From contig CM035843.1 in NCBI GenBank assembly GCA_020510985.1, positions 157,251,922-157,315,921 on the forward strand: a stretch of DNA of 64,000 nt, given 5' to 3'. The stretch is from Pholidichthys leucotaenia. Taxonomy: Eukaryota. Below the pieces are notes generated by a model that did no database searches, was not told the origin of the DNA, and saw only the letters and a list, made by a program, of their open reading frames with translations. Of the stretch, positions 21,120 through 22,200 are shown piece by piece (within the stretch, counting starts at the first letter, position 1; every line of letters begins with the position of its first letter). A program made the translations under genes and the position numbers.

Positions 21120-22200
21120 AGCTGATATGTCTGGTACAAATTTTTGAGGTGAAAAAAGTCATAAATTTCTGAGGGGAAAAAAAAAGCTACAAATTTATGA
21201 GGAAAAAAAGCCATAAGTTTATGAGGGGGATAAAAACCACAAATTTATGAGGAAAAAGCCAGAAAATTTGAGGAAAAAAGCCACAAATTTATGAGAGTCA
21301 CAAATTTATGAGGAAAAAAGTTACAAATTCACGAGAAAAAAACACAAATTTATGAGAAAAGGCCACAGACTTATGAGAATAAAAGTTACAAATTAATGTG
21401 AAAAAGTCAAAAAATTGTGAGACAAAAAACCCAAATTTATGAGGAAAAAAGCCACAAATTTATGAGGAAAAGGTTGCAGATTTCTAAGAAAGTTGAAAAT
21501 TTATTAGGAAAAAGTGACAAATTTACAAGAAAAAAAAATCAAATTTCTTAGAAGTTGAAAATTTGCGAGAAGGTGACACATTTACCAAAAAAGTAGATTT
21601 ATGATGAAAAAATCATAAAATTACTAGAAAAAAGTGAGAGGTTCATGAGAAAAGTACATTTACATGCAAAAAAAGTCAGATGTGTGAGGAAAAAGCTATA
21701 AACTTTTAAGAAAGTTCAGTTTACCAGGAAAGAAGTCACAAATTCATGAGGAAAATGTCCCAAATTTATAAAGAAAAAGTGACAGATTTATGACAAAAAG
21801 TATTAATGATTAATGAGGAAAAGTCACAAATTTCAAAGGTAAAAGTTGAACATTTACGAAGAAAAAAAGACAAATTCATGAGGGGAAAAAGTGACAAATT
21901 TATAAGAAAAAAGTTGAAAATTAACTATGAAAAAATGACAAATTCATGAGGAAAAGAGTAGCAGATTTATGATGAAAAAGTTGCATATTTCTAAGAAAAA
22001 AGTTACAAATTTCTAAGGAAAAAAGTGAAAGTTTAAGAGGGGGAATAAAGTTAAATTTATCAGAAAAAAACTGCAGATTTCCAAAAAACGACAAATATGT
22101 GTTGACAAAAAAGCTTGAAGTTGCAAGAAAAGAACTTTGAGATATATGAGAAGCTGCAAATTCCTGAGAATTAACAGCTGTAAATTTGGGCATGAAAATT
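21120..22200 (+). repeat. ~22-bp satellite, large array (~1.1 kb)
   Basis: 'ccacaaatttatgaggaaaaagccagaaaatttgaggaaaaaagccacaaatttatgagagtcacaaatttatgaggaaaaaagttacaaattcacgag…'. Confidence 0.9.

Follow-up and report, generated by a model that had tools for sequence, protein, structure and literature searches.

What is the short A-rich repeat that recurs across a 64,000-nucleotide stretch of the genome of the fish Pholidichthys leucotaenia (GenBank assembly GCA_020510985.1, contig CM035843.1, positions 157,251,922 to 157,315,921 of the forward strand; hereafter the window), and why do so many of its arrays lie beside putative exons? An initial annotation, made from the letters alone, had described a satellite with a monomer of about 22 bp that brackets every exon-family copy and the ARF-domain exon, and had offered three readings of it: an expanding repeat resident in introns, a recombination hotspot that drives exon duplication, or the interior of a non-autonomous element. 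On balance the repeat is probably an old and decaying non-coding 22-bp minisatellite that is enriched at this locus, where it occupies introns and nearby DNA of a lineage-specific, fast-evolving gene region, and no function is required to account for it.

The repeat unit, its age and its spread

Between positions 21120 and 22200 of the window a degenerate tandem array is evident in the letters themselves. The 22-bp monomer has the consensus RGAAAAAAGT(T/C)(A/G)CAAATTTATG, written plainly RGAAAAAAGTYRCAAATTTATG. A position weight matrix (PWM) was built from core-anchored monomers. With a match threshold of >8 bits the PWM detects 236 monomers in the window against 6-13 in block shuffles that keep the local composition, and the clustered matches form 17 blocks (62-939 bp) with a total length of 5067 bp. 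This is equivalent to 7.9% of the window and slightly lower than the figure of about 10% given initially. Tandem Repeats Finder (TRF), a check that the initial annotation had proposed, identifies tandem repeats with a period of 22-23 at 21136-22023 and at >10 further sites with 60-72% matches between copies. The TRF periods range overall from 20 to 27, with multiples of 44, 64-68 and 87, and the core-to-core spacing of the monomers has its mode at 22. BLAST with a query of six joined monomers returns 20 blocks, 13 on the plus strand and seven on the minus strand. Taken together, TRF, BLAST and the comparison of the PWM with shuffled sequence bear out the description of a dispersed A-rich repeat of about 22 bp and the form of its monomer; BLAST and PWM both place blocks on either strand, as had been stated, and the degenerate forms reported at 10380-10530, 40680-40870 and 62930-63240 were all recovered. 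The arrays measure from 0.06 to approximately 1.2 kb, so that the range first given, about 0.1 to 1.4 kb, was slightly generous at its upper end. A head-to-tail unit within 10-100 bp, arrays of ~0.1 to a few kb and interspersion among splice sites and transposons are all features of minisatellites, an assignment that is based on one haplotype and one window. The spurious lysine-rich open reading frames (ORFs) that had been attributed to the arrays do arise within them and are short because the consensus, as read from the sequence (...TTTATGAGG...), puts a TGA in one-third of the monomers.

Each monomer contains two A/T tracts that are half a unit apart, which results in an 11-bp phasing that is in phase with the DNA helix, and the A/T-step autocorrelation of the repeat has peaks at lags of 10-11, 22, 33 and 44. 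Phased A-tracts give rise to intrinsically curved DNA, a property that is common among satellites, and the 11-bp phasing of the 22-bp repeat suggests that its DNA is likewise intrinsically curved.

The age of the arrays can be judged from the divergence of their monomers. Monomers compared in pairs are on average 0.59-0.67 identical within an array and 0.55-0.64 identical between arrays, a difference of 0.02, and a single consensus is common to all arrays. As identity within arrays is close to identity between arrays, the arrays are therefore old and decaying and not expanding, and they resemble what an ancient amplification would leave behind after a period of drift. The notion of an expanding repeat is at odds with monomers that are ~62% identical and no more alike within than between arrays. 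The repeat likewise departs from classical satellite DNA, in that its longest array reaches only ~1.2 kb and array-specific homogenisation is absent. Local block duplications are few and show 82-87% identity (87 bp x 2 at 82% and 146 bp x 2.3 at 87%), with higher-order sizes of 44, 64-68, 87 and 146 bp. The 146-bp higher-order unit, in 2.3 copies of 87% identity, is located at 59801-60156 in array J (arrays and exon copies are labelled as in Table 1) and includes a non-array insert (…AATAATACATTTTATTTATGGGCACCTTTCATGACACTCAAGGTCACC…), a foreign fragment that was apparently swept into a local duplication inside the array.

Outside the window, the family was sought in 95 kb around ARF genes of Larimichthys crocea, Embiotoca jacksoni and Thalassophryne amazonica, and none of its arrays occurs in those 95 kb of three other teleosts. 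The sampled ARF loci do contain intronic minisatellites of 0.3-2.9 kb that are unlike the 22-bp family, and intronic minisatellites are commonplace in teleost genes. The longest of those in L. crocea (GCA_003711585.2 CM011666.2; L030 15291-18150) comprises 86 copies of a 33-bp unit over 2.9 kb with 92% matches in an intron of an annotated ARF1 model, and a short palindromic A-rich motif, AAAAGTCAGAATTCTGACTTTT, lies beside this array. An L. crocea intron also holds a loosely similar A-rich motif, AAAAGTCAGAATTCTGA, as a 2.5-copy repeat. A 19-mer scan of viral contigs gave two chance matches only, and the 27-nt degenerate monomer matched metagenome contigs at 27 loci, all of them single chance matches in AT-rich, prokaryote-like contigs and none of them an array. 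The concatenated translation of the array ORFs had no match among the gene calls of other genomes, and a search of the literature with monomer k-mers retrieved nothing relevant.

Exons and the arrays beside them

The exons next to the arrays belong to two kinds, a family of paralogous putative exons and a single exon with an ARF domain. The exon family is defined by a near-invariant acceptor region, TTCCTCTCCACTTCTGTCCTCCTTTCTAG|AGTC (TTCCTCTCCACTTCTGTCCTYCYTT), which occurs on the plus strand in every case (3136, 5856, 8464 and 22344); profile comparison (nhmmer, E 1e-48 to 1e-64 for the four) did not find further copies in the window. The family is composed of three paralogues (copies 1, 2 and 3) and one recent duplicate (copy 1'), and paralogous exons with homologous splice sites in one orientation are what tandem exon duplication leaves behind. 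The acceptor is better conserved than the bodies of the exons. All members open in one common phase from the acceptor, and an apparent stop codon of copy 2 is part of its GTGAGT donor. The exit phase of copy 2 matches the entry of the ARF exon, which starts with a third codon base, and judging by phase the paralogous exons could not all be spliced in series. Homologues of the 480-aa ORF of the family were not found in an exhaustive search, and the 153-aa ORF has none among 1.84 billion cluster representatives.

Two further features were observed within the family. Copy 2 contains at 22896-23536 a 27-bp coding minisatellite of ~20 copies that encodes FSFGAAPQS-like (FG-type) repeats and has a number of open frames on the two strands, thereby inflating ORF lists. 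The family starts with an acidic motif, SSSDEDMGFGLFDDD (3205-3260, 8535-8585 and 22395-22440), that matches the C-terminal tail of the ribosomal stalk protein P2, SDDDMGFGLFD. The sole PDB match of this motif, 4v6i chain Bv, is non-significant (E=1.6), and the likeness is a short-motif resemblance only.

The relationship between exons and arrays is closest at the acceptors. The three paralogues align for 60-100 bp upstream of the acceptor and into the last two or three degenerate monomers, and homology that covers the terminal monomers upstream of all three acceptors is the mark of intron co-duplication. The sequence right before the polypyrimidine tract is itself monomer-like, and the array ends grade without a sharp stop; the degenerate monomers of array E run on to ~22340, just ahead of the acceptor of copy 2. 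When the Tc1 insertion and the recent duplication are taken out, the acceptors of copies 1 and 3 are ~1.0 kb apart, a distance that corresponds to an ORF-bearing exon plus ~0.45 kb of array. From the homology that extends into the monomers and the spacing of ~1 kb it therefore follows that exon and array were duplicated together as a module. Arrays begin ~45-80 bp after exon ends, within ~50-90 bp of donor sites, and stop ~40-90 bp before the conserved acceptors, and by reaching so near to both kinds of splice site they agree with the initial reading of the repeat as intron-resident; the putative introns would be almost wholly minisatellite.

The rule that every exon is bracketed by arrays applies to the copies at 3166, 5886 and 22371 and to the ARF exon, all of which have arrays within ~45-350 bp on both sides, but not to the truncated copy at 8494, which has an array upstream only. 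Arrays G/H, M and K and the remnant at 10.4 kb adjoin no recognisable exon. The exons here are accompanied by arrays, but not every array has an exon beside it. The tight exon association that was claimed at the outset is inflated because paralogues, the recent duplicate and fragments split by transposable elements were counted separately. It comes down to two independent exon-array adjacencies, the ancestral family module and the ARF exon, and four or five arrays are exon-free.

The ARF-domain exon at 58499 has a good acceptor and aligns from residue 15 of ARF1, with the amphipathic N-terminal helix missing. A database search with this exon returned only generic ARFs with <=64% identity, and its 63-aa N-terminal extension is without a match; the exon may be the retrocopy-derived terminal exon of a lineage-specific fusion gene. 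A candidate small exon upstream ends at 57305 and would give an in-frame AG|A junction to the ARF exon. As had been described, the two arrays that bracket the ARF exon face in opposite directions, with I on the minus and J on the plus strand. Two long inverted tandem-repeat arms, a hallmark of foldback elements, occur solely at this unit (I 57301-58411, J 59415-60620), but the conserved termini and target-site duplication of such elements do not. The two arrays match at the monomer level only (70-86% over 30-60 bp), and neither colinear terminal sequence nor a target-site duplication was found at their outer ends. A foldback-type transposon at the ARF unit is therefore not supported, although an old one may underlie the arms. 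The RNA duplex energy of I versus J, computed in 150-nt windows, has a mean of -59 kcal/mol compared with -35 for shuffled sequence and -29 for the direct orientation, and the inverted RNA of I and J could pair if it were on one transcript, which describes a computed potential only. The pairing energy is no evidence of function because any inverted repeat pair yields such a potential.

Transposons and the number of original arrays

Transposons make up most of the window, and the remaining DNA is small in extent and array-rich. Recognisable elements are several Tc1-like copies, fragments of long interspersed nuclear element (LINE) reverse transcriptases, hAT and Harbinger remnants, and an intact long terminal repeat (LTR) retroelement at 15787-21050 whose 564-bp LTRs share 99.8% identity. 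The window is eukaryotic, and its transposon content looks teleost-like. Rfam and tRNA scans of the window gave no matches.

Several of the arrays are pieces of a single array that insertions divided later. Arrays A and B run into each other when the Tc1 at 1143-2902 is disregarded, as do arrays C' and D on either side of the Tc1 at 6736-8347. The 3' end of a LINE abuts array A, one LINE fragment divides G from H and another one follows F. At least six independent transposon junctions lie inside arrays or <=100 bp from them, which fits AT-rich and TA-rich neutral DNA that tolerates or attracts insertions. In addition, the segment 2688-5625 recurs at 5407-8351 (98.3% identity, period 2.72 kb); this duplication ends in Tc1 terminal repeats, and two arrays and one exon copy are its recent products. 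Once the splitting by Tc1 and LINE insertions and the 2.72-kb duplication are allowed for, the 17-20 blocks therefore reduce to ~10 ancestral arrays.

The suggestion that the arrays are a recombination hotspot behind exon duplication is compatible with the joint duplication of exon and array, but the only recent duplication in the window is mediated by Tc1 ends and not by arrays. The tandem duplication at 2688-8351 may be due either to Tc1-mediated unequal recombination or to an assembly artefact.

A number of observations concern the transposons as such. Both LTRs of the retroelement at 15787-21050 carry ~80 bp (15846-15930 and 20546-20630) that are homologous to the exon family (3285-3347 and 22505-22585). 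The LTR segment matches exon copy 1 at 34/35 positions and its left half is nearer to exon copy 2; the element, which is located 85 bp from array E, may have captured a piece of the family, or the family may be partly LTR-derived. An origin of the arrays from LINE 3' tails was rejected, as a second copy of the LINE that adjoins array A (50752-51737) has no terminal array. Harbinger/PIF remnants, recognised by eye in ORF translations, span 52942-56069 and include a C-terminal piece of a transposase (plus strand, 52942-53322) as well as a Myb/SANT-like ORF (minus strand, 55854-56069). A supposed plus-strand array at ~52.5 kb, which would pair with array I around these remnants, was dismissed because it consists of three weak A-rich matches only. 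A fragment that resembles the pol 3' end of the LTR element (…FVPKTLKNAEFVLVRHDKQR…) contains, at 61524-61736, a 116-bp tandem repeat in 1.8 copies of 91% identity.

Table 1 Arrays, exons and associated features of the window (positions in the 64,000-nucleotide stretch)
Feature	Position	Strand	Remarks
Array A	1063..1153	+	Left portion of the array that precedes exon copy 1; left side cut by a LINE 3' end; parted from B by Tc1
Tc1-like transposon	1143..2902	+	Secondary insertion into array A/B; no part of the repeat
Array B	2903..3100	+	Continuation of A; passes gradually into the polypyrimidine tract of exon copy 1
Exon-family copy 1	3166..3635	+	Acceptor ...TTCCTCTCCACTTCTGTCCTCCTTTCTAG|AGTC; putative ORF open from the acceptor; no homologue in the databases searched
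Array C	3671..4015	+	Downstream of exon copy 1; broken by Tc1 at 4017
Array B'	5623..5820	+	Array B copied by the 2.72-kb tandem duplication (98.3% identity)
Exon-family copy 1'	5886..6355	+	Recent duplicate of copy 1
Array C'	6391..6735	+	Duplicate of array C; joins array D once Tc1 6736-8347 is removed
Array D	8352..8447	+	Continuation of C' beyond Tc1; immediately upstream of exon copy 3
Exon-family copy 3	8494..8625	+	Truncated; 82% identity to copy 1 over ~170 bp
Degenerate array remnant	10420..10550	+	No recognisable exon next to it
Array E	21136..22083	+	934 bp, ~35 scoring monomers; LTR retroelement ends 85 bp to the left
Exon-family copy 2	22371..23823	+	Conserved acceptor; strong donor GAA|GTGAGT at 23824; no homologues found
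Array F	24166..24559	+	Downstream of exon copy 2; followed by LINE fragment 24560-25480
Array G	25491..25691	-	Inverted; LINE fragment 25692-26590 between G and H
Array H	26590..26908	-	Inverted; no recognised exon close by
Array M	40676..40870	-	Degenerate orphan between transposon copies
Candidate small exon	57229..57305	+	Putative; 77 bp; its phase fits the ARF exon; array I starts at its donor GT
Array I	57301..58411	-	Inverted; occupies nearly the whole putative intron before the ARF exon, up to 88 bp from the acceptor
ARF-domain terminal exon	58499..59189	+	Pfam Arf 3e-66; no N-terminal helix; <=64% identity to any database ARF
Array J	59415..60620 (blocks 59415-59855, 59952-60620)	+	~230 bp past the ARF stop codon; inverted relative to I
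Array K	62943..63223	-	Degenerate orphan

Origin of the arrays and their place among known systems

If the repeat is an old intronic minisatellite, its history may be reconstructed as follows. An array may have been born by replication slippage or unequal exchange in an intron just upstream of an exon, into whose polypyrimidine tract the terminal monomers merge even now. The ~1-kb module of exon and array was then duplicated, as the alignments show, to give the three paralogous exons, each of which is situated behind positionally homologous terminal monomers. Similar arrays would have filled the intron before the ARF exon and the region after it, and at least one rearrangement would have inverted some of them. 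Insertions of Tc1, LINE and LTR elements in or beside the arrays and the Tc1-mediated 2.72-kb duplication, both of them evident in the sequence, later turned ~10 arrays into the 17-20 blocks of today, and homogenisation has come to an end, with the arrays decaying by point mutation. The apparent exon-flanking rule would arise because arrays and exons represent most of the ancestral locus once the young transposons are set aside.

Several points weigh against this history. Module duplication leaves the four or five exon-free arrays (G/H, M, K and 10.4 kb) unexplained, and rearrangement breakpoints have not been demonstrated for the orientation switches at F/G, I-ARF-J and K. The coding status of the family exons, and hence the label 'intron', is deduced from splice signals and phase and not from conservation, because the exons are without homologues and the differences between copy 1 and copy 3 are mostly non-synonymous (~17 non-synonymous and 3 synonymous in a hand count on the alignment). 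Equal divergence within and between arrays is also expected of dispersed copies of a mobile element. Lastly, the spread of the repeat was read from this one 64-kb window, and the repeat may be confined to the locus or genome-wide.

The arrays could alternatively be internal or subterminal repeats of a dispersed non-autonomous transposable element, either foldback-, Galileo- or Tetris-like or Helitron/HINE-like with expandable central repeats, that repeatedly entered introns in one orientation or the other and whose inverted arms could have brought in the ARF exon or enclosed it. This is rather unlikely, even though it would account for the presence of arrays in both orientations and away from exons, for the arrangement of I and J as inverted arms of 1.1-1.2 kb around a 1-kb core that holds the ARF exon, and for a monomer divergence that is alike within and between arrays. 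Foldback-type elements whose inverted repeats are internally repetitive, and satellites that originated from such elements, are moreover documented in earlier reports (PMC4079207, PMC3573991, PMC8268682). However, an all-against-all BLAST of the 300-bp flanks of 14 arrays revealed no recurrent unique sequence except for Tc1 ends and the exon acceptor region, which is evidence against a discrete, mobile unit bounded by definite ends. The initial suggestion of a non-autonomous element is not supported on the same ground, as the flanks share only Tc1 insertions and the acceptor, and terminal inverted repeats or target-site duplications were not seen around the arrays. Arms that are alike only at the level of the monomer, array ends that grade into degenerate monomers and a polypyrimidine tract, and the lack of any transposase associated with the arrays point in the same direction, and a second copy with the same ends was not found in the window, nor any copy in the 95 kb of three teleosts, the metagenome contigs or the viral contigs. 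Less probable still is a repeat that is simply a genome-wide, species-typical AT-rich minisatellite of non-coding DNA in general, with an incidental proximity to exons. The small and array-rich remainder of non-transposon DNA, the existence of orphan arrays and the loosely similar AAAAGTCAGAATTCTGA repeat (2.5 copies) in an L. crocea intron are consistent with it, but the positionally homologous terminal monomers of the three paralogues indicate that these arrays, at least, were passed on together with the exon and not acquired independently; the absence of arrays from the 95 kb of the three other teleosts also speaks against it, albeit weakly as these are other species.

A functional explanation is very improbable. 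It would regard the arrays as cis-elements that either pair across the ARF exon, and in this way select one of the paralogous large exons (by mutually exclusive choice, skipping or back-splicing), or act as curved, nucleosome-positioning DNA. The duplex energy of I versus J relative to shuffled and direct controls, the 11-bp phasing of the A/T tracts, and an acceptor that is conserved beyond the exon bodies would all be in keeping with such a role, as would the one entry phase of the family, the exit phase of exon copy 2 that fits the ARF exon and the apparent impossibility of including all exons serially. On the other hand the monomers are heavily degenerate and show no constraint beyond a shared ancestral consensus, several transposons inserted in the arrays without apparent cost, and the pairing potential is non-specific. 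In its most far-reaching form, to which hardly any probability can be assigned, the arrays may be working parts of a gene: monomers would supply the homology for module duplication, while opposed arrays (across the ARF exon, and F versus G/H) would pair in the pre-mRNA and thereby choose the variable exon that is joined to the ARF exon or drive back-splicing. The whole would then be the selector system of a lineage-specific ARF-fusion gene with a ribosomal P-stalk-like acidic motif. Should the arrays turn out to be restricted to this gene family, or to control which of its paralogous exons is chosen, the locus would exemplify how repeats can drive the birth of exons and control splicing.

As an old minisatellite, the repeat has a small significance beyond annotation. 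Adding the 22-bp family to the repeat library of this genome would stop lysine-rich pseudo-ORFs from being called genes, and with such an entry the fragments could be identified as the remains of a few old arrays that transposons have broken up. The locus further illustrates how an exon and a minisatellite intron duplicate as a unit, how AT-rich arrays collect Tc1 and LINE insertions, and how the separate counting of fragments and paralogues inflates an association.

The repeat shares features with four known systems. Like classical satellite DNA with phased A-tracts it has A/T tracts every 11 bp, twice per monomer, whereas its arrays are short, unhomogenised and interspersed among genes and transposons and do not form long homogeneous heterochromatic blocks. 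The ARF unit is reminiscent of the Foldback, Galileo and Tetris elements, as portrayed in the respective reports (PMC4079207, PMC3573991), since inverted arms of 1.1-1.2 kb made of a short tandem unit surround a unique core, here the ARF exon; it differs from them in that shared termini, a target-site duplication, a transposase and a second copy with the same ends were not found, and the other exon units have direct arrays. A model in which modules of exon and intron are duplicated has been described for vertebrate megasatellites (Descorps-Declere and Richard, bioRxiv 10.1101/2021.07.19.452908). The ~1-kb module of exon and intron duplicated in this window corresponds to it, with exons that are still recognisable and intronic parts that have drifted, but there are three diverged copies and one Tc1-mediated recent copy in place of a regular tandem, the intronic part is itself a minisatellite, and the predicted phases bar serial splicing. 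The closest correspondence is with intronic minisatellites, with which the repeat shares a degenerate, AT-rich, head-to-tail unit of 22 bp in arrays of 0.06-1.2 kb between splice sites as well as local higher-order duplications, and comparable arrays are found in teleost ARF introns. Whereas an intronic minisatellite is usually a single polymorphic array at one site, here one monomer family makes up ~10 arrays over 62 kb on both strands.

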